Below, piece after piece: positions 10,974 through 45,730 of a stretch of 64,000 nt of DNA. How positions within the stretch are numbered: the stretch's first letter is position 1; every line of letters begins with the position of its first letter. The position numbers and the translations under genes are program-made. Source of the DNA: a virus (lineage: Duplodnaviria > Heunggongvirae > Uroviricota > Caudoviricetes); the IMG/VR virus record IMGVR_UViG_2925939204_000001. The stretch is one strand, 5' to 3'. The notes beneath the pieces were generated by a model. The model saw only the letters and a list, made by a program, of their open reading frames with translations, was not told the origin of the DNA and made no database searches.

Positions 10974-12635
10974 TTAACCTAACTTCGCCCAGGTATCACG
11001 CAGCCCAACGGTGCGGTTAAATACCGGTTTTTCCGCCGTAGAATGGCGGCTGTCGAGGCAGAAATAACCTTCACGCTCAAACTGGAATGCTTTACCCGCT
11101 ACCGCTTCTTTCAGCGACGGTTCAGCAAAACCCTGTTTGATCACCAGCGATTCCGGGTTAATCACCGACAGGAAATCATCCGCAGCACCTGGGTTCGGCA
11201 CGCTGAACAGACGATCGTACAGGCGGATTTCAACCGGCAGCGCATGTGCCGCGCTCACCCAGTGAATAACGCCTTTCACTTTACGACCATCTGCCGGATC
11301 TTTGCTTAAGGTGTCGGCGTCATAAGTACAGAAGATGGTGGTGATATTGCCTTCGGCATCTTTCTCCACGCGTTCAGCCTTAATGACGTAAGCATTACGC
11401 AGACGCACTTCTTTACCCAGCACCAGACGTTTGTACTGCTTGTTAGCTTCTTCGCGGAAATCGGCGCGGTCGATCCAAATCTCACCGCTAAACGGCACCT
11501 GACGGCTACCCATTTCCGGTTTGTTTGGATGGTTCGGCATGGTGACCATTTCGCCTTCGCCCTGGTAGTTTTCGATAACCAGTTTCACCGGATCGATAAC
11601 CGCCATTGCGCGCGGCGCATTTTCGTTGAGATCTTCACGGATGCAGGATTCCAGCGACGCCATCTCAATGGTGTTGTCCTGCTTGGTCACGCCGATGCGT
11701 TTGCAGAACTCACGAATAGAAGCCGCAGTGTAACCACGACGACGCAGACCGGAAATGGTCGGCATACGCGGGTCATCCCAGCCTTCAACGTGCTTGTCGG
11801 TCACCAGCAGGTTCAGCTTACGCTTGGACATCACAGTGTATTCCAGATTCAGGCGCGAAAATTCGTACTGGCGCGGGTGAACAGGAATGGTGATGTTGTC
11901 CAGTACCCAGTCATACAGACGACGGTTGTCCTGGAACTCAAGCGTACACAGAGAGTGCGTAATACCTTCCAGCGCATCGCTGATGCAGTGGGTGAAGTCG
12001 TACATCGGGTAGATGCACCACTTGTTGCCAGTCTGGTGATGTTCAGCAAACTTAATGCGGTACAGCACCGGGTCGCGCATCACGATAAACGGCGAAGCCA
12101 TGTCGATTTTCGCACGCAGGCAGGCTTTACCTTCTTCAAAACCACCGGCACGCATTTTTTCGAACAGCGCCAGGTTCTCTTCAACGCTGCGGTCGCGGTA
12201 CGGGCTGTTTTTACCCGGCTGCGTCAGGGTGCCGCGGTATTCGCGGATCTGTTCCGGCGTCAGTTCGTCAACATACGCCAGGCCTTTGTTGATCAGTTCA
12301 ACAGCATAGGCATGGAGTTTGTCAAAATAATCGGAGGAGTAACGGATGTTGCCAGACCAGTGAAAACCTAACCATTCAACGTCGTTTTTAATCGACTCGA
12401 CGTACTCGATATCTTCTTTTACCGGGTTAGTGTCGTCGAAACGCAGGTTGCACTGGCCTTTATAGTCCTGGGCGATCCCGAAGTTCAGGCAGATAGATTT
12501 CGCATGACCAATATGCAGATAGCCATTCGGTTCCGGCGGGAAACGGGTATGTACTGTGGTGTGCTTACCACTGGCCAGATCTTCATCGATGATCTGACGA
12601 ATAAAGTTAGTCGGGCGGGCTTCTGCCTCACTCAT
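10974..12635 (-). CDS. glnS: glutaminyl-tRNA synthetase (host-like, full length 553 aa)
   Basis: Essentially colinear with E. coli GlnRS from [20 protein letters not shown], incl. class I HIGH motif (PNGYLHIGH) and VMSKR (KMSKS-type) motif. Confidence 0.95.
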
Positions 12636-35171: not shown

Positions 35172-36017
35172 ATGAAAGAGAATTGGTTTAAGGAGCGGTT
35201 AACTAAAGCAAAACAGGATTCTAAGCTCTGGAGCGCCTTTATAGGCGCTTTACATGAAGTCTGGGATGAAGCTGTAGAACCAATATTAACAAGAATAAGT
35301 AACAGAAAATCCTTCTTCACTATGGACAGTGAGGATATGGATGCCCGCATTGCTGAATACGGGCGTTTTTTCGTTATCACTGAAAAAGATAAGGCCCGTA
35401 GGCCAATGCTTCTGGCACAACGTTTAGATGAAGTGCACTTTAAAGGCACTATCCTGCCTATTGAGCAGACATTCTGGCGTGAATTCGGTTGTATTCCTGT
35501 AAGTTGGGAACCGCTGTATGCTCCTGTAAATATAGAAAAACACCCCTATGGTTCATATTTTGCGACCGAAATAGAGATACCAACTGCACAGTCTCAATTC
35601 GGTGAGTTCTTCCTGACATCAAGGGGGCTGGTCGTTGTTGATCAGAACAAGCTATATCGCTCATATGGAGAGCAGGATCGAGAAGCTGCTGTGCAGAAAT
35701 TGTTATCTGACTTCGAAACAGTAATAGCCCCATTGTTGCCATTGCATATTATTTTTGATGGCGTCTCGTTTCGGCTTAGTGCAGTATTCCCTGAAGTGGC
35801 AGAAATACTAAATTGCTTGTCTACGGATATTTCGGTAATTGAAGGTGTTTATGTTACTGAGAGTATGGCTGATATGCTATCCCATAGTGATACCTCCTGC
35901 CAGGCAGACAATATTTCTCTTAACGCCATACCGAACCGAACGGCAGAAAAGCAATTACATCTTGATGTAACCCCACTCGATGCGTGGCCTTTGGATTACC
36001 ACCTTCAACCTGTTTAA
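35172..36017 (+). CDS. hypothetical baseplate protein candidate (281 aa)
   Basis: Operon position. Confidence 0.5.
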   Translation: MKENWFKERLTKAKQDSKLWSAFIGALHEVWDEAVEPILTRISNRKSFFTMDSEDMDARIAEYGRFFVITEKDKARRPMLLAQRLDEVHFKGTILPIEQTFWREFGCIPVSWEPLYAPVNIEKHPYGSYFATEIEIPTAQSQFGEFFLTSRGLVVVDQNKLYRSYGEQDREAAVQKLLSDFETVIAPLLPLHIIFDGVSFRLSAVFPEVAEILNCLSTDISVIEGVYVTESMADMLSHSDTSCQADNISLNAIPNRTAEKQLHLDVTPLDAWPLDYHLQPV

Positions 36018-36049
36018 TAATTCTTCCCCCGCATTTGGGGGAACAACGG

Positions 36050-36070
36050 AAATCACAAACTGAGCATACT
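36050..36070 (+). promoter_or_regulatory. late-promoter-like element AAATCACA-N7-CATACT
   Basis: Preceded by hairpin TTCCCCC-GCATTT-GGGGGAA; upstream of 36109. Confidence 0.4.
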
Positions 36071-36108
36071 CTCCTTTGGTTCATTGCTTATGAAGGGGCT
36101 ATGTTCGT

Positions 36109-36555
36109 ATGGCTGAAAATTTAAAGGCAAGAGATGGTAACCGCCTGTATAAGGCGCAATTGCTTTCCTACTATTATTCACGCCGCGCTGAGTCGGCGAT
36201 CGGCAAAGGTGCGCGTTTTGTTATCTCTAAGGCGTATTGGTGCAAATCTAGTCTGGTAACTGCTAATGGTGCAGGAGGCTGGAATATAGCGGACATTCCA
36301 CTCGATTTTAAATTGAGTAAAGCTCAACAGTTTGCTGTGTCCGATCTGATATTGTCCAGTGTGGATGGGATTATCACTATCAATGCAGCCTTCCCTCAAG
36401 AAAGAATGCCGGATAACACGCCTTACGACTTTAACACGCTTGTGCTTGTTGATGCTGAGGAACAGGCTTTTGCTGTGCTTTGCACCCAGCAAGACACCCT
36501 CTATAAAGGTAAACGTTACAGTATTCTCATGACAATCGAGCAAGTTGAGGGTTGA
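36109..36555 (+). CDS. hypothetical protein preceding tail fibre (148 aa)
   Basis: 4-nt overlap with fibre gene start. Confidence 0.5.
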   Translation: MAENLKARDGNRLYKAQLLSYYYSRRAESAIGKGARFVISKAYWCKSSLVTANGAGGWNIADIPLDFKLSKAQQFAVSDLILSSVDGIITINAAFPQERMPDNTPYDFNTLVLVDAEEQAFAVLCTQQDTLYKGKRYSILMTIEQVEG

Positions 36556-39542
36556 TTATGAATGCTGATAAAACGAACAACATAATGACACTATCCTCTG
36601 GTGTCTCACAGCCGTTGCTTGCTGATGTTCAATATTTCGAACTCTATAGTAGTCTGGCTCTTAACAGAAAACTAAAAAATATTGTTTTGCCTGGCTTTTA
36701 CTGTGGATTTGAACCGGTTCCCGGCACAGGGTTGAGTGTCCGTATAACTTCTGAAAACTCAGAAGGTAAAGGGGCTGCTTCAGTAGATGTAAATAATGTT
36801 CAGATATCCGTTCAGCAAATAGAAGATGTGACTGTCTCGGTAAAGGCAGGGGCTACCAACATTATTGTGCTGGAAGCCAATTTTGAACATGGTGTAAAAA
36901 CGACACAGGTAGATAGCGCATCTTTTGTCAGTGCTGCAAGAATTTACGCGCGTACGGACAATACTATTGGGCAGAATCAAATTGAATTATGTCGAGTTAT
37001 CGTGCCTAGCGGCGCAACGGCTGTGACTAAAGAAATGATTGTGCTTAAATACCGGGTTAACCGTGCTGTTGGTGTCGAATTCTCTAATGAAATAAGCAGT
37101 ACAGAAGAAAGAAAAGCGGCTACACCTCTGGCTGTCAAAACTCTCCATGATTTGGTTGATACAAAAGCCCCGATCAACAGCCCGAATCTGACAGGAACGC
37201 CAACAACACCAACAGCGACACAGGGGACTAATAATACCCAGATCGCAAGCACGGCTTTCGTTATGGCCGCGATTGCCGCACTTGTAGATTCGTCACCTGA
37301 TGCACTTAACACTCTGAACGAACTGGCCGCCGCGCTTGGTAATGATCCGAACTTTTCCGCGACAGTGACTCGCCTGATTGGGGAAAAAGTTGCCAAAGAT
37401 GGCGACACCATGGAAGGTAAACTTAATCTGCCGCAGACCTCTGCATTCGGCATCAATACCGACAACAGACTGGGGGGGAACTCTCTGACGCTGGGCGATC
37501 ACGATACCGGAATTAAACAGGAAGGAGACGGCGTATTGTCCGTGTTCGCCAACGGCCAGCGTGTGTTCCTTTTCACGGAAAGAAGTATTACCTCATTAAA
37601 AGAGCTTCTGATAGGTGATGCACGTTATAGCACCGGTGGTGATGTGTATGGCAGTCAGTGGGGAGACGGTTGGTTGAGTTCCTGGTTAAGTGCCCGCTTT
37701 GCAGAGTGTGCCAACGCCAGCCATAACCACCCTTGGAGCCAGATTACCGACGTACCAGCAGCCAGCCTCACTCAGAGCGGCATTGTACAACTTAGTAGTG
37801 CCACCAACAGCACTTCTGAAACATTAGCTGCAACGCCAAAAGCGGTTAAAGCTGCATACGATCTAGCAGCCGGAAAGGCACCATCCAGTCATACACATCC
37901 CTGGAATCAGATCACCGGTGTGCCAACAGCTTCATTGACAGCGAAAGGCATCACTCAGCTCAGTAGTGCCACTAACAGCACGTCCGAAGTGCTGGCCGCC
38001 ACACCGAAAGCTGTCAAGGCCGCATATGACCTGGCTAACGGGAAGTATACGGCCCAGGATGCAACCACGACACAAAAAGGGATAGTTCAGCTCAGTAGCG
38101 ACACCAACAGCACTTCTGAAACATTAGCTGCAACGCCAAAAGCGGTTAAAGCTGCATACGATCTAGCAGCCGGAAAGGCACCATCCAGTCATACACATCC
38201 CTGGAATCAGATCACCGGTGTGCCAACAGCTTCATTGACAGCGAAAGGCATCACTCAGCTCAGTAGTGCCACTAACAGCACGTCCGAAGTGCTGGCCGCC
38301 ACACCGAAAGCTGTCAAGGCCGCATATGACCTGGCTAACGGGAAGTATACGGCCCAGGATGCAACCACGACACAAAAAGGGATAGTTCAGCTCAGTAGCG
38401 ACACCAACAGCACTTCTGAAACATTAGCTGCAACGCCAAAAGCGGTTAAAGCTGCATACGATCTAGCAGCCGGAAAGGCACCATCCAGTCATACACATCC
38501 CTGGAATCAGATCACTAGTGTGCCAACAGCTTCATTGACAGCGAAAGGCATCACTCAGCTCAGTAGCGACACCAACAGCACGTCCGAAGTGCTGGCCGCC
38601 ACACCGAAAGCTGTCAAGGCCGCATATGACCTGGCTAACGGGAAGTATACGGCCCAGGATGCAACCACGACACAAAAAGGGATAGTTCAGCTCAGTAGCG
38701 ACACCAACAGCACTTCTGAAACATTAGCTGCAACGCCAAAAGCGGTTAAAGCTGCATACGATCTAGCAGCCGGAAAGGCACCATCCAGTCATACACATCC
38801 CTGGAATCAGATCACTAGTGTGCCAACAGCTTCATTGACAGCGAAAGGCATCACTCAGCTCAGTAGCGACACCAACAGCACGTCCGAAGTGCTGGCCGCC
38901 ACACCGAAAGCTGTCAAGGCTGCATATGATTTGGCTAATGGAAAGCAAGCGGCAGACACTACGCTCACTGCTCTAGCGGCACTAGCTACAGCAGCAGATA
39001 AACTCCCTTATTTCACAGGGGTTGATCGTGCCGCGTTAACTGCATTGACAAGTGTTGGACGCGCCATTCTTGGTAAGACCAGTATTCAGAGCGTTCTTGA
39101 TTACCTTCAATTGGGAGAAGCGGCAAAAAGGGGCGTGGGCACCGGTAGCAATCAACTCCCTGACATGTCCGCATTTGGTATGTCGCGAAACGGACAAACT
39201 GCCTGGGATATTCTCCCAAATGGTATGATTCGACAGGCTGGCACTGTGACACTGACACCAGTTGGTAACTTCAACGCGCAGGTGCTTGGTGGGGTGACGT
39301 ACTACACCCATTACTACAGGATTAATTTCCCCAGACAATTCCCAAATGCACAAATAGCAACGCTGGCTACACTAGCGAGTTACGCCTATTCGAACCAGGC
39401 AACAATGGCTGGAAAATCACTGGCAACGCATCGCGATACTGATTCTGGCACTGACGTATCAAGAACGCGATTCACTGTGGCGTATACGACACCCAATCTC
39501 GGCGAAATACCGACAGTGCATTTTGAATCAATAGGGTACTAA
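36552..39542 (+). CDS. tail fibre protein (996 aa)
   Basis: Eight copies of the ~50-aa phage tail-fibre repeat (QLSS.TNSTSE.LAATPKAVKAAYDLA.GK) flanked by HTHPWNQIT segments. Confidence 0.8.
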   Translation: MIMNADKTNNIMTLSSGVSQPLLADVQYFELYSSLALNRKLKNIVLPGFYCGFEPVPGTGLSVRITSENSEGKGAASVDVNNVQISVQQIEDVTVSVKAGATNIIVLEANFEHGVKTTQVDSASFVSAARIYARTDNTIGQNQIELCRVIVPSGATAVTKEMIVLKYRVNRAVGVEFSNEISSTEERKAATPLAVKTLHDLVDTKAPINSPNLTGTPTTPTATQGTNNTQIASTAFVMAAIAALVDSSPDALNTLNELAAALGNDPNFSATVTRLIGEKVAKDGDTMEGKLNLPQTSAFGINTDNRLGGNSLTLGDHDTGIKQEGDGVLSVFANGQRVFLFTERSITSLKELLIGDARYSTGGDVYGSQWGDGWLSSWLSARFAECANASHNHPWSQITDVPAASLTQSGIVQLSSATNSTSETLAATPKAVKAAYDLAAGKAPSSHTHPWNQITGVPTASLTAKGITQLSSATNSTSEVLAATPKAVKAAYDLANGKYTAQDATTTQKGIVQLSSDTNSTSETLAATPKAVKAAYDLAAGKAPSSHTHPWNQITGVPTASLTAKGITQLSSATNSTSEVLAATPKAVKAAYDLANGKYTAQDATTTQKGIVQLSSDTNSTSETLAATPKAVKAAYDLAAGKAPSSHTHPWNQITSVPTASLTAKGITQLSSDTNSTSEVLAATPKAVKAAYDLANGKYTAQDATTTQKGIVQLSSDTNSTSETLAATPKAVKAAYDLAAGKAPSSHTHPWNQITSVPTASLTAKGITQLSSDTNSTSEVLAATPKAVKAAYDLANGKQAADTTLTALAALATAADKLPYFTGVDRAALTALTSVGRAILGKTSIQSVLDYLQLGEAAKRGVGTGSNQLPDMSAFGMSRNGQTAWDILPNGMIRQAGTVTLTPVGNFNAQVLGGVTYYTHYYRINFPRQFPNAQIATLATLASYAYSNQATMAGKSLATHRDTDSGTDVSRTRFTVAYTTPNLGEIPTVHFESIGY
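37725..38945 (+). repeat. tandem 300-bp (100-aa) repeats, about four near-identical units
   Basis: Lines at 37801, 38101, 38401, 38701 are near-identical; each unit has two related ~150-bp half-units. Confidence 0.85.
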
Positions 39543-39544
39543 AT

Positions 39545-39778
39545 ATGGAGAATATCTATTTCAGCCCAACGACCGTTGGTTTTTATGTTTCTGAACAAGA
39601 GCGACCTGATGATGCGGTTGAAGTCTCGCCAGAGGTGGAGGCATTTTTGAGGGAGTGTGTTATCTGGGGAGCGGATACATTTAACGTAGAGCGAGATGCA
39701 GCAACGGTGACATATCCAACAGAACTGCTTGAATATGTCACCACCTACAACGCCCCCGTTAAATATCCTGCGGATTGA
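39545..39778 (+). CDS. tail fibre assembly (Tfa)-like N-terminal domain protein (77 aa)
   Basis: N-terminus [18 protein letters not shown] matches Tfa pattern; lacks conserved Tfa C-terminus. Confidence 0.45.
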
Positions 39779-40169
39779 CAGGCCATACGGGTTTTGCTGT
39801 ATCAACGCGCATCAGCAAGACCCGGTATTTTTTCCATTCAGATAACGCGGCGGTTTCTTCTGCCGTCGCGATTTCCGCATCAAAAGCATCCTGTCTCTAG
39901 GCTATTTCCTTATCAGCCATAGAACGCAATACCGTTCTTTTCTGTTCAGCCTGAATAATCTGTTGTTCAGCGGAGAGTGGCGGGATATCAATCCACGCAG
40001 GATTACCATTTTTATCAGCCCCCAGCGTTTTGCCTTGTGGCGCTACGCCTGTGTAAATTGCCATTGTTTCATCATCAACATCAACGCCATTTTCAGGCCA
40101 TGAACCGGCGCTGATATATACCTCTTTTAGTGCTTTCGGATAGAAAGAGCCTTTATAAAATTTATTCAT
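39744..40169 (-). pseudogene. tail fibre assembly (Tfa/U-like) gene interrupted by in-frame amber codon
   Basis: MNKFYKGSFYP...AWIDIPP...RSMADKEIA, then TAG at 39897-39899, then in-frame [39 protein letters not shown] (conserved Tfa C-terminus). Confidence 0.5.
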
Positions 40170-40643
40170 TCTTAATACCCCAGCGCGATAAAACAACAAT
40201 CTTTGGTGCCCTCTCCGGATGGCGACCAGTTCTGAATACTGATATGCGTTCTGCTGGCAATACGCACATTCATCGCGGCATTGTAGCCAGATGTTCCACG
40301 GTTTCCGGTCGCAAATAAGCCTGCATAGGGAAAAGCAAATGGTAAGCCGCTCTAACTGCTATACGACCAAGGCTTCATCTCTGGAAAACATACGCAGAAC
40401 CTTTTTTAACCCTTGGCGTTTAGCCTTTTTGCCACTCGCTTTGCCCTCAAAAATTAGCTCACATCCTGCGCTTTCAAGGGGGCGTTGCAAAGCGGTGTTT
40501 TGGTCATTTGTTGATATGCGAATGTATCTAATAAGCATATGTCTCCCCTTGTATGTTAAGGAAGGAGATTTTAGAAGATGTCCTGTAAGGAAATAACAAA
40601 CTGACTAAGGTAGTGGCGCATTAGATGTTATTTCTGGAGGGGT

Positions 40644-40970
40644 ATGTTTGCAGATTATGAAAATCTGGCTGTAGTAGTCATAACATCCCTACTAAGTGGA
40701 ACCGGCGTATTCCTTCTCGGAGTTAGAGACGGGCGCATTTCTGCGTCCCTGCTCAATCTTGCGAGTGAATTGTTTACTGCGGTAACAGCCGGGCTTGCGG
40801 GGTATGGGGTGGCGGTTAGCCAAGAATGGCCTGAAGGTATCATTTTCTGCGTTGTTCTGATTGCCAGTAACAACGGTAGTGAAATTTTACAGGGCTTGAA
40901 GTCCAGAGCTAGTAACGTCTTGAATCTCTTAAGCGTAATAGCGAATGGGGGAAAAGGTGGAGAGAAATAA
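40644..40970 (+). CDS. small three-TM membrane protein, holin-like (P1 LydA-like?)
   Basis: 108 aa with three hydrophobic segments; first gene of operon. Confidence 0.4.
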   Translation: MFADYENLAVVVITSLLSGTGVFLLGVRDGRISASLLNLASELFTAVTAGLAGYGVAVSQEWPEGIIFCVVLIASNNGSEILQGLKSRASNVLNLLSVIANGGKGGEK

Positions 40971-41416
40971 TGGGTAACTTTGGAAATTATTTCATTTTTA
41001 TCATGGCATTTGTTGCCATCATTGACCGTTTCATTTTTCGTCGCAAGAGTGTTGAGATTTTGAGTATTGGTGACGCTGTAGTGAAAGAATCCGCTATAGC
41101 ATTTCCTGTTTCGCTACGTGTTAAGCGAAGCTGGTTCAGCAATGCTCAAATCGAATATTGGTTGCAAGACCTGAAAAATCCATCTGTGGTTATTTCAGGG
41201 AAAACGCGACCAGTTGACGCTTCAAAACGCGGTGAGAGAGAAGAGTATTTGCTCATCGATACGAAATATCTTGAGCCAACGAAGTGGGATCTGAAAGTCA
41301 CATTGACTAACGGTAACTGCCGACTGAATCCGCTTTATCGCATTTTCCCTATCAATGACTGCATAGAGCGCCAGTTTACGATCGAAAAGCGTGAAGGAGA
41401 CTGGGATGTCAAATAA
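40970..41416 (+). CDS. N-terminally anchored membrane protein (148 aa; LydB-like?)
   Basis: Single N-terminal TM (YFIFIMAFVAIIDRFIF); start overlaps upstream stop. Confidence 0.4.
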   Translation: MGNFGNYFIFIMAFVAIIDRFIFRRKSVEILSIGDAVVKESAIAFPVSLRVKRSWFSNAQIEYWLQDLKNPSVVISGKTRPVDASKRGEREEYLLIDTKYLEPTKWDLKVTLTNGNCRLNPLYRIFPINDCIERQFTIEKREGDWDVK

Positions 41417-44375: not shown

Positions 44376-45730
44376 AAACCCCGTCCTTCAGGGCGGGGAT
44401 ATAAGGCGCGGTTTTCCACCTAAATTTTTTTGTTTAAAATAGCGGGATGAAACGACTACAGGCATTTAAATTCCGGTTAAGACCAGATGGTCAACAGGAG
44501 CGAGAAATGAGGCGCTTCGCGGGAGCTTGTCGTTTCGTTTTCAATCGTGCTCTGGCGCTTCAGAATGAGAATCATGAAGCCGGGAACAAATATATTCCTT
44601 ACACAAAAATGGCTTCCTGGCTGATTGAGTGGAAAAATGCCTCTGAAACGCAATGGCTTAAAGATTCTCCCTCACAGCCATTGCAGCAATCACTGAAAGA
44701 CCTTGAGCGGGCCTACAAAAATTTCTTCCAGAAGCGTGCGGCTTTCCCCCGATTCAAAAAGCGGGGACAGAATGATGCATTCCGCTACCCGCAGGGCGTT
44801 AAGCTCGATCAGGAAAACAGCCGTATTTTTCTGCCGAAACTGGGCTGGATGCGCTACCGGAACAGCCGTCAGGTCACGGGTGTTGTGAAAAATGTCACTG
44901 TCAGCCAGTCCTGCGGTAAGTGGTACATCAGTATTCAGACAGAAAGTGAAGTATCAACTCCGGTTCACCCTTCAGCATCAATGGTCGGGCTGGATGCTGG
45001 CGTGGCTAAACTCGCCACGCTGTCAGATGGCACAGTCTTTGAGCCTGTAAACAGTTTTCAGAAAAACCAGAAGAAGCTGGCGAGACTTCAGCGACAGTTA
45101 AGCCGCAAGGTCAAATTCAGCAACAACTGGCAGAAGCAGAAACGCAAAATACAGCGACTGCATTCCTGTATCGCAAATATCCGCAGGGACTACCTTCACA
45201 AAGTCACAACGACCGTCAGCAAAAACCACGCAATGATAGTCATTGAGGATTTGAAGGTCAGCAACATGTCAAAGTCAGCAGCGGGTACGGTCAGCCAGCC
45301 GGGGCGCAATGTCCGGGCAAAATCAGGTTTAAACCGTTCGATACTGGATCAGGGCTGGTATGAAATGCGCCGCCAGCTTGAGTACAAGCAGCTCTGGCGT
45401 GGCGGTCAGGTGCTTGCTGTTCCGCCAGCGTACACAAGCCAGCGTTGCGCGTACTGTGGTCATACAGCGAAAGAAAATCGCCTGTCACAAAGTAAATTCG
45501 AGTGCCGGGCATGTGGATATACAGCGAACGCCGATATAAACGGCGCTCGTAACATTTTAGCGGCGGGACACGCCGTTCTTGCCTGTGGAGGGATGGTGCA
45601 GTCAGGCCGCCCGTTGAAGCAGGAACCCACCGAAATGATTCAGGCAACAGCCTGAGCGTAGCAGGAATCCATGTTCTTGAGGGCGTGGAGGATGTCAACT
45701 GTTCTCACATAAATCACACACTTTTTACAC
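44376..45730 (+). mobile_element. IS200/IS605-family element carrying only tnpB (IS609-like); boundaries approximate
   Basis: Subterminal hairpin CCCCGTCC-TTCA-GGGCGGGG at 44379-44398 before tnpB; no tnpA ORF. Confidence 0.6.
44447..45655 (+). CDS. tnpB: IS605-family TnpB (OrfB) RNA-guided nuclease-type protein
   Basis: Near-identical to E. coli K-12 InsQ/YdcM as recalled; C-terminal zinc-finger [25 protein letters not shown]. Confidence 0.9.

Follow-up and report, generated by a model that had tools for sequence, protein, structure and literature searches.

A tail-fibre locus with an amber-interrupted chaperone gene in a D6-like phage-plasmid of Escherichia coli: very probably a locked relic of an invertible segment

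Behind the tail-fibre gene in the 64,000-nucleotide stretch of viral DNA analysed here (the window; IMG/VR record IMGVR_UViG_2925939204_000001), a small plus-strand reading frame and a minus-strand tail fibre assembly (Tfa) gene run towards each other, and the second of these is interrupted by an in-frame TAG. The first-pass annotation of this DNA had left two explanations side by side, namely, that the locus is a host-range segment that once inverted and is now frozen and in decay, or that it depends on amber suppression. The question is which of the two applies and which of the reading frames still serves the fibre. As set out below, the locus is very probably what remains of a Cin/Pin-type invertible tail-fibre segment, now locked, in a D6-like phage-plasmid. 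The first of the two explanations is thereby favoured, and it is supported by intact relatives that occur in two orientations, by the survival of only one crossover site, by the missing invertase and by a deletion junction.

The tail-fibre locus and its relatives

Over positions 39000-41000, the window was found to be 100% identical to plasmid unitig_3 of E. coli AR_0118 (NZ_CP020051, 91 kb) and likewise to a 216-kb plasmid of AR_0128 (NZ_CP021720). On the AR_0118 plasmid, RefSeq/PGAP flags both of the damaged genes that are described below, the tfa' pseudogene as "tail fiber assembly protein, internal stop" and the cin stump as "recombinase family protein, missing C-terminus". Synteny and nucleotide identity around the locus (16, R, the N-terminus of S, lydA, lydB, darA and ddrA), together with a plasmid-borne glnS gene for a glutaminyl-tRNA synthetase of 553 aa (10974-12635, minus strand), identify the window as a D6-like, P1-related phage-plasmid of E. 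coli. The glnS gene is present in all D6-like genomes, and the inversion region is their most divergent part (PMC6799933). In D6 itself, the gene order is 16, R, S, U, U', S', cin, lydA, lydB, darA, ddrA, with cixR lying within S and cixL at the 3' end of cin. The identity to D6 was 96% over 35407-37265, the end point of this match being inside S.

The tail-fibre gene S (36552..39542, plus strand) is uninterrupted, encodes 996 aa and is a mosaic. By comparison with D6, its N-terminal part is D6-like up to about 37265; its middle was assigned to Phage_fiber_2 repeats by Pfam, and from 39107 onwards it encodes an exchangeable gp53-like receptor-binding tip, here called Sv. Since Sv is in frame with S, the present orientation is the expressed one. 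The middle part includes a tandem array at 37794-38945 in which a 300-bp repeat encoding the Phage_fiber_2 repeats is present in 3.8 copies of 98% identity, and because the shaft segments of relatives differ here, fibre length probably varies through the gain and loss of repeats. The right border of the locus is formed, as in D6 and P1, by the holin gene lydA (40644..40970, plus strand), which differs from that of D6 at 0 of 324 nt. A sharp mosaic boundary was observed within 40344-40970, lydA being that of D6 and the adjoining cin stump being about 92% identical, with changes that are mostly non-synonymous. This boundary would reflect either a recent replacement of the lysis genes or the origin of the stump in another, older lineage. 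Beyond the locus, a 402-aa ORF for a TnpB/InsQ-type RNA-guided endonuclease (44447-45655, plus strand), with no adjoining TnpA, was found between the ddrA-like and ddrB-like genes, at a position where D6 has a short intergenic gap only.

Complete versions of the cassette were found in other replicons. Positions 39094-40346 of the window are collinear with and 93-98% identical to modules in a chromosomal prophage of the same strain, beside tonB (L003), in a P2-like prophage (L004) and in a P1-like plasmid (L005). The modules in these three are complete, with Sv in frame with the resident fibre gene, the 77-aa ORF, an opposite-strand 136-aa Tfa, a full alternative tip Sv' (161-169 aa) and an intact invertase that is transcribed away from the segment. 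Complete cassettes, with two inverted 26-bp sites and a serine invertase, of which WP_046598022.1 is an example, occur in P2-like, P1-like, D6-like and other prophages and in both orientations. The predicted flipped right junction, in which the start of Sv lies by the invertase, was recovered from 217 complete E. coli genomes. In addition, two P1-like plasmids, L005 and L014, agree in their invertase protein and in the genes downstream but have the cassette the opposite way round. As judged from these sequences, intact cassettes do invert in relatives, and collinear identity to complete cassettes known in both orientations argues that the window's locus is a relic of one by descent.

The search for the predicted flipped left junction mostly recovered the Sv'-Tfa half paired with other partners. 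In two E. coli chromosomal prophages, this half was joined to quite different opposite halves, comprising a tip without any chaperone ORF in L012 and a tip with a 197-aa Tfa in L013, suggesting that half-cassettes are shuffled independently.

The same fibre cassette is joined to a cin stump in three other D6-like plasmids, L006 (NZ_LT906557), L007 (NZ_CP122510) and L008 (NZ_CP081308), none of which has an intact invertase. Each of them has a different junction (CTT, AA and a different insertion), indicating that loss of the invertase happened more than once. Such repeated, independent deletions, with four junctions in four D6-like plasmids, might reflect selection to lock host range and not neutral decay.

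Remnants of the inversion system

Three components of an inversion system that had been reported as absent are present, in whole or in part, less than 400 bp from the region that was first described, namely, a crossover site, an alternative fibre C-terminus and a piece of an invertase gene. The crossover site is an intact 26-bp site of the cix/pix type, TTCTTGATTACC-TT-CAATTGGGAGAA, and lies at 39094..39119 inside the fibre gene S. It is identical to the left site of the intact L004 cassette and, by eye, matches D6 cixR at 17 of 26 positions. In intact cassettes, the left site consists of a backbone-specific half followed by TT-CAATTGGGAGAA, and the right site, in inverted orientation, consists of TTCTCCCAAACC-AA followed by a backbone-specific half. 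When the whole window was searched for the partner site as a full 26-mer with up to 3 mismatches, there were 0 matches, and the position that this site takes in intact cassettes falls inside the window's deletion. The number of matches to the 9-mer half-site was 15 compared with 16 expected, and a generic inverted-repeat search around the locus found nothing like flanking sites. An exact copy of the 9-mer inner half-site, TTCTCCCAA, was seen in inverted orientation at 39211-39219 (plus strand), inside Sv and 92 bp downstream of the surviving site; this copy is probably a chance or coding coincidence.

The surviving site also marks where relatedness to other cassettes starts. Homology to the window begins at the 5' edge of the left site (39094/39095) in L003 and in the D6-like L006-L008, and it reaches further upstream in L004 (to 38940) and L005 (to 38967). 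Edges at or near the site are the pattern expected of cassettes that are exchanged at or near crossover sites.

The alternative fibre tip is represented on the minus strand at 40172..40346 by the last 57 codons of Sv' (40345..40175) and the stop codon. The encoded segment is gp53-like and 98% identical to the C-terminus of intact Sv' (tblastn E = 1e-35); roughly 105-112 codons have been lost from its start, together with the right crossover site. The invertase gene is represented by a 65-codon 5' remnant of a D6-type cin (40344..40538, minus strand), which was detected with Pfam Resolvase (E = 1.6e-11) and by tblastn (E = 5e-26) and which has 77% amino acid identity to D6 Cin and nucleotide identities of 92% to D6 and 85% to P1. 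In this stump, a TAG (40359-40361) stands in place of the conserved Trp60 and one codon is deleted. The dN/dS ratio of the stump relative to D6 was 0.42, compared with 0.04 for the same codons of the intact D6 and P1 cin genes. The homologue of the annotated P1 enhancer (nt 19-90 of cin) is located at 40452-40520 and has a 3-nt deletion as well as substitutions. In Fis-dependent enhancers, a 3-nt deletion should disturb the spacing of the sites.

The earlier statement that a working recombinase is lacking was upheld. With three invertases as tblastn queries, the cin stump was the only serine recombinase matched in the window, and the annotation of the complete plasmid includes a tyrosine recombinase only, with no serine recombinase, so that an intact invertase is neither present in the window nor annotated on the whole plasmid.

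Homology to the cassette ends at 40346 and homology to cin begins at 40344, placing the deletion junction at 40344..40346, where the 3 bp AAG are common to the Sv' side and the cin-remnant side. The best guide to the precursor is the D6-like plasmid pEc-050-T0_3 (L019). An intact replacement invertase is encoded there on the plus strand, and behind it, on the minus strand, lies a cin stump of 307 nt. This stump is 97% identical to the window's and already has the TAG at Trp60, indicating that the resident cin had been replaced and was decaying before the window's deletion. The exact precursor, a D6-like plasmid with this very cassette and an intact invertase, was not found; pEc-050-T0_3 has the architecture with different fibre cassettes.

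The locus therefore lacks three of the four features that define a functional segment of the Din family (Cin/Gin/Pin/Hin). An intact invertase is replaced by the 65-codon stump, there is one 26-bp site instead of two inverted ones, and, of the two pairs of fibre C-terminus and cognate chaperone, only Sv with the 77-aa ORF is undamaged, the other consisting of the last 57 codons of Sv' and a tfa' interrupted by a nonsense codon. Lacking an invertase and a second site, the segment is presumably no longer able to invert. Invertases are encoded in the host chromosome and could act in trans on the remaining site and an unrecognised secondary site.

The 77-residue protein and the amber codon

The plus-strand 77-aa ORF that had been noted after the fibre gene is indeed present and intact at 39545..39778. 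Its product is identical to WP_001340317.1 and is the likely cognate small partner of Sv, presumed to be a mini-chaperone. The proposal that it is a Tfa N-terminal domain, or a truncated Tfa, did not hold, as the protein belongs to a length-conserved family of its own that is under purifying selection and stands alone in P2-like prophages. What it has in common with Tfa is confined to its N-terminus, where PHROG 188, among the Tfa profiles, matched residues 1-31 only (E = 9e-5) and where an N-terminal "YFS..T.GFY" motif is found in both proteins. A search of Pfam with the 77-aa sequence returned no family at E <= 0.01, and BLASTP detected no similarity to the 136-aa Tfa. The AlphaFold model of the protein has a confident fold (pLDDT 90); with this model, Foldseek against the PDB gave nothing significant, Mu Tfa included, and a fold search of BFVD gave weak matches only, the best named of which was a 60-aa "tail fiber assembly protein" of Pantoea phage LIMEzero (E = 0.044). 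Tfa proteins comprise a variable fibre-binding N-domain and a conserved C-terminal trimerising domain (PMC9608196). The 77-aa ORF reached no Pfam threshold for Caudo_TAP (PF02413), and the conserved C-terminal helical domain is absent from it. The equation of this ORF with a Tfa domain was dropped after the Pfam, BLASTP, Foldseek/PDB and BFVD searches, the protein being Tfa-like at its first 31 residues only.

The homologues of the 77-aa protein, collected down to 59% identity from Citrobacter, Enterobacter, Phytobacter and metagenomes, range with few exceptions from 77 to 80 residues in length and have 21 invariant positions. In P2-like prophages without an inversion system, a homologue of 77-80 aa takes the place of P2 gene G, with no other gene between H (fibre) and the sheath gene and no Tfa nearby. 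The Sv tip is 84% identical to the fibre tip of such a prophage in Phytobacter. Comparison of the window's gene with its L015 homologue gave a dN/dS of 0.08, indicating strong purifying selection; this value is quoted from the L015 comparison only, since dS was saturated for the most distant homologue, L017. The Sv and Sv' tips are merely 24% identical to each other, suggesting that each tip plausibly needs its own partner. From its position and its co-inheritance with the tip, the 77-aa protein is presumed to be the chaperone or tip partner of Sv.

The convergent minus-strand Tfa gene was borne out as a 136-codon pseudogene, tfa' (39759..40169), corresponding to the Caudo_TAP chaperone of the silent Sv' tip and overlapping the 77-aa ORF by 20 bp. 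The in-frame TAG (39897-39899) was likewise confirmed; it is codon 91 and the only defect of the gene. When Trp was restored at this codon, the translation matched Pfam Caudo_TAP (PF02413) over residues 8-134 with an E value of 2.4e-31 and 109 bits against a cut-off of 22.1, whereas the product as encoded stops after 90 residues. Such a match marks the frame as a Tfa gene broken by one nonsense codon rather than as a chance ORF. The alignment of the TAG with a conserved Pro of an IAPLQDA motif needs correction, since the codon is TGG (Trp) in five relatives and TTG (Leu) in one. Across the window and L003-L008, the middle base of codon 91 was thus observed in three states (TGG, TTG and TAG), and the rest of the gene is nearly invariant. 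With the TAG counted, tfa' differs from its closest relatives in 1-2 codons and from L005 in up to 7. No sigma-70-like promoter was seen directly upstream of tfa'. A hairpin with a 14-bp stem (39706..39742; -26.8 kcal/mol as RNA, z -4.2) is located where the 3' ends of the 77-aa ORF and tfa' converge and overlap. It is kept in the intact cassettes L003-L005 and has no T-run after it.

That the TAG is a sequencing or assembly error in an intact tfa' is very improbable. The long-read assemblies are of unknown polishing and the difference is of one base, but the same base was found in two separately deposited assemblies, NZ_CP020051 (AR_0118) and NZ_CP021720 (AR_0128), and a substitution is unlike the indel that is typical of long-read errors. 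Moreover, even an intact tfa' would stay stranded by the truncated Sv' and have no means of inversion. It is scarcely credible that Tfa' is still made and needed, whether through suppression of the amber codon by a tRNA or through programmed readthrough. The ORF, undamaged apart from the TAG, and the tRNA genes and glnS of the plasmid would fit such a role. However, ARAGORN found no tRNA gene in the window, and the four tRNAs of the whole plasmid are ordinary ones with the anticodons CAT, TGA, TGT and GTT, none of which reads UAG. The allele is also private to one plasmid lineage: of 5426 complete E. coli genomes, only 2 contain the 41-mer with the TAG at its centre (NZ_CP020051 and NZ_CP021720), whereas the TGG version is found at 92 places in 89 genomes of this set. 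Finally, the fibre partner Sv' is cut to 57 codons, and tfa' is in the silent orientation, antisense to the fibre operon. Dependence on amber suppression was set aside on these grounds. With its partner truncated and the gene antisense to the operon, the TAG is most simply read as a neutral nonsense mutation that arose recently in a gene left stranded, and suppression explains nothing extra; the amber codon would have no function and would be part of the decay of the silent copy.

A further alternative would reverse the roles of the two small genes. If the 77-aa ORF encoded no chaperone and the Sv fibre relied on the opposite-strand 136-aa Tfa', the amber codon would make the phage fibre-defective. 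The 77-aa protein has no Pfam match and lacks the C-terminal helical domain that is said to drive fibre trimerisation (PMC9608196), and the deletion has left a minus-strand series of cin stump, Sv' stump and tfa' downstream of the positions of the P1 cin promoters. We nevertheless regard this reading as distinctly improbable, because P2-like prophages have the 77-80 aa homologue alone beside an 84%-identical tip with no Tfa nearby, because the 77-aa gene is under strong purifying selection and because a partner of its own is expected for each of two tips with only 24% identity. Another alternative accepts the relic and concerns the origin of its deletion, which may have been made by the invertase at a quasi-crossover site and not by microhomology-mediated illegitimate recombination. 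Cin-type enzymes use quasi-sites at low frequency, and both parents have AAG at the junction (AAGG on the Sv' side and CCAAGG in D6 cin), recalling the cix core ACC-AA-GGT. Against this, the flanking 12-bp half-sites match cix, by eye, at about 7 of 24 positions outside the core, which is the chance level, the parental cin stump in L019 has AAGC and not AAGG, and the junctions in L006, L007 and L008 (CTT, AA and a different insertion) are unrelated. Invertase-mediated deletion at quasi-sites was judged unlikely on these three points.

The preferred reading, that of an inversion switch that was locked by deletion and then decayed, can be put as a sequence of steps. The D6-like plasmids of this lineage had lost most of their own cin, keeping the 5' stump with the TAG at Trp60, and depended on a replacement invertase on the other strand, as in pEc-050-T0_3. 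A single deletion with the 3-bp AAG junction, which we attribute to microhomology-mediated illegitimate recombination, then removed about 310 nt of Sv' (its 5' two-thirds) and, in the same event, the right crossover site, the replacement invertase and about 110 nt of the cin stump. The phage is predicted to make the single fibre S-Sv, helped by the 77-aa protein, and the minus-strand relics would be non-functional. The silent tfa', freed from selection, probably gained its TGG-to-TAG nonsense mutation afterwards.

For this plasmid-phage, one fixed fibre specificity is predicted. The locus would illustrate the death of a host-range switch, in which cassettes are exchanged at or near a crossover site and the resident invertase is replaced, after which a microhomology deletion locks one orientation and the silent half decays by point mutation. 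Inversion-system relics, fibre-cassette exchange and the variability of this region among D6-like plasmids are established, both pseudogenes are flagged in RefSeq, and the significance of the locus beyond correct annotation is little. The only modestly new point is the family of 77-residue partners, currently annotated "hypothetical protein", which is likely to be the dedicated partner of a widespread gp53-like fibre tip. A more tentative proposal, to which we give somewhat less than an even chance, is that the 77-aa protein is a minimal stand-alone chaperone or tip partner and, as a separate matter, that the recurrent deletion of the invertase is the mark of selection locking host range. On the minimal-chaperone proposal, one class of gp53-like receptor-binding tips would be served without the C-terminal trimerisation domain that defines Tfa.

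Comparison with known systems

The closest counterpart is the C segment of P1 and D6 (S-U-U'-S'-cin, with cixL, cixR and an enhancer in cin). The window's locus takes the same place, between R and lydA, and follows the same logic, in which a constant fibre N-terminus is combined with exchangeable, inverted tips and their cognate chaperones. The cin 5' stump, including the enhancer region, is homologous, and the crossover site is of the same 12-2-12 type. In contrast to P1 and D6, the window keeps 65 cin codons, with a nonsense codon and a codon deletion in the enhancer homologue, and has a single crossover site, so that the segment presumably cannot invert. Its tips are gp53-like and unrelated to those of P1 and D6, and one of its chaperones is the 77-aa protein and not a U-type Tfa.

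Pin/Gin-type cassettes are found in P2-like, Mu-like and e14-type prophages (L003, L004, L012 and L013 are examples), and the window's module is 96-98% identical to those in L003 and L004. Such cassettes have an Sv' of full length (161-169 aa), a right site that reads TTCTCCCAAACC-AA-CGTTTAAGAAAA and an undamaged invertase gene, all three of which are missing from the window. The D6-like plasmids L006-L008 likewise combine the cassette with a cin stump, with deletion end-points that differ in each, whereas the junction and the amber codon of the window are private to the AR_0118/AR_0128 lineage. Fibre and chaperone genes accompanied by partial or orphan inversion components are also known from the cryptic prophages Rac (stfR-tfaR-pinR) and Qin (pinQ), which are covered in part by PMC12529663. 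Among the Tfa/Caudo_TAP chaperones, of which Mu U (TfaMu) is an example, the minus-strand 136-aa gene is a clear member (E = 2.4e-31), whereas the 77-aa protein, without the conserved C-terminal helical domain of Tfa proteins, occupies the chaperone position.
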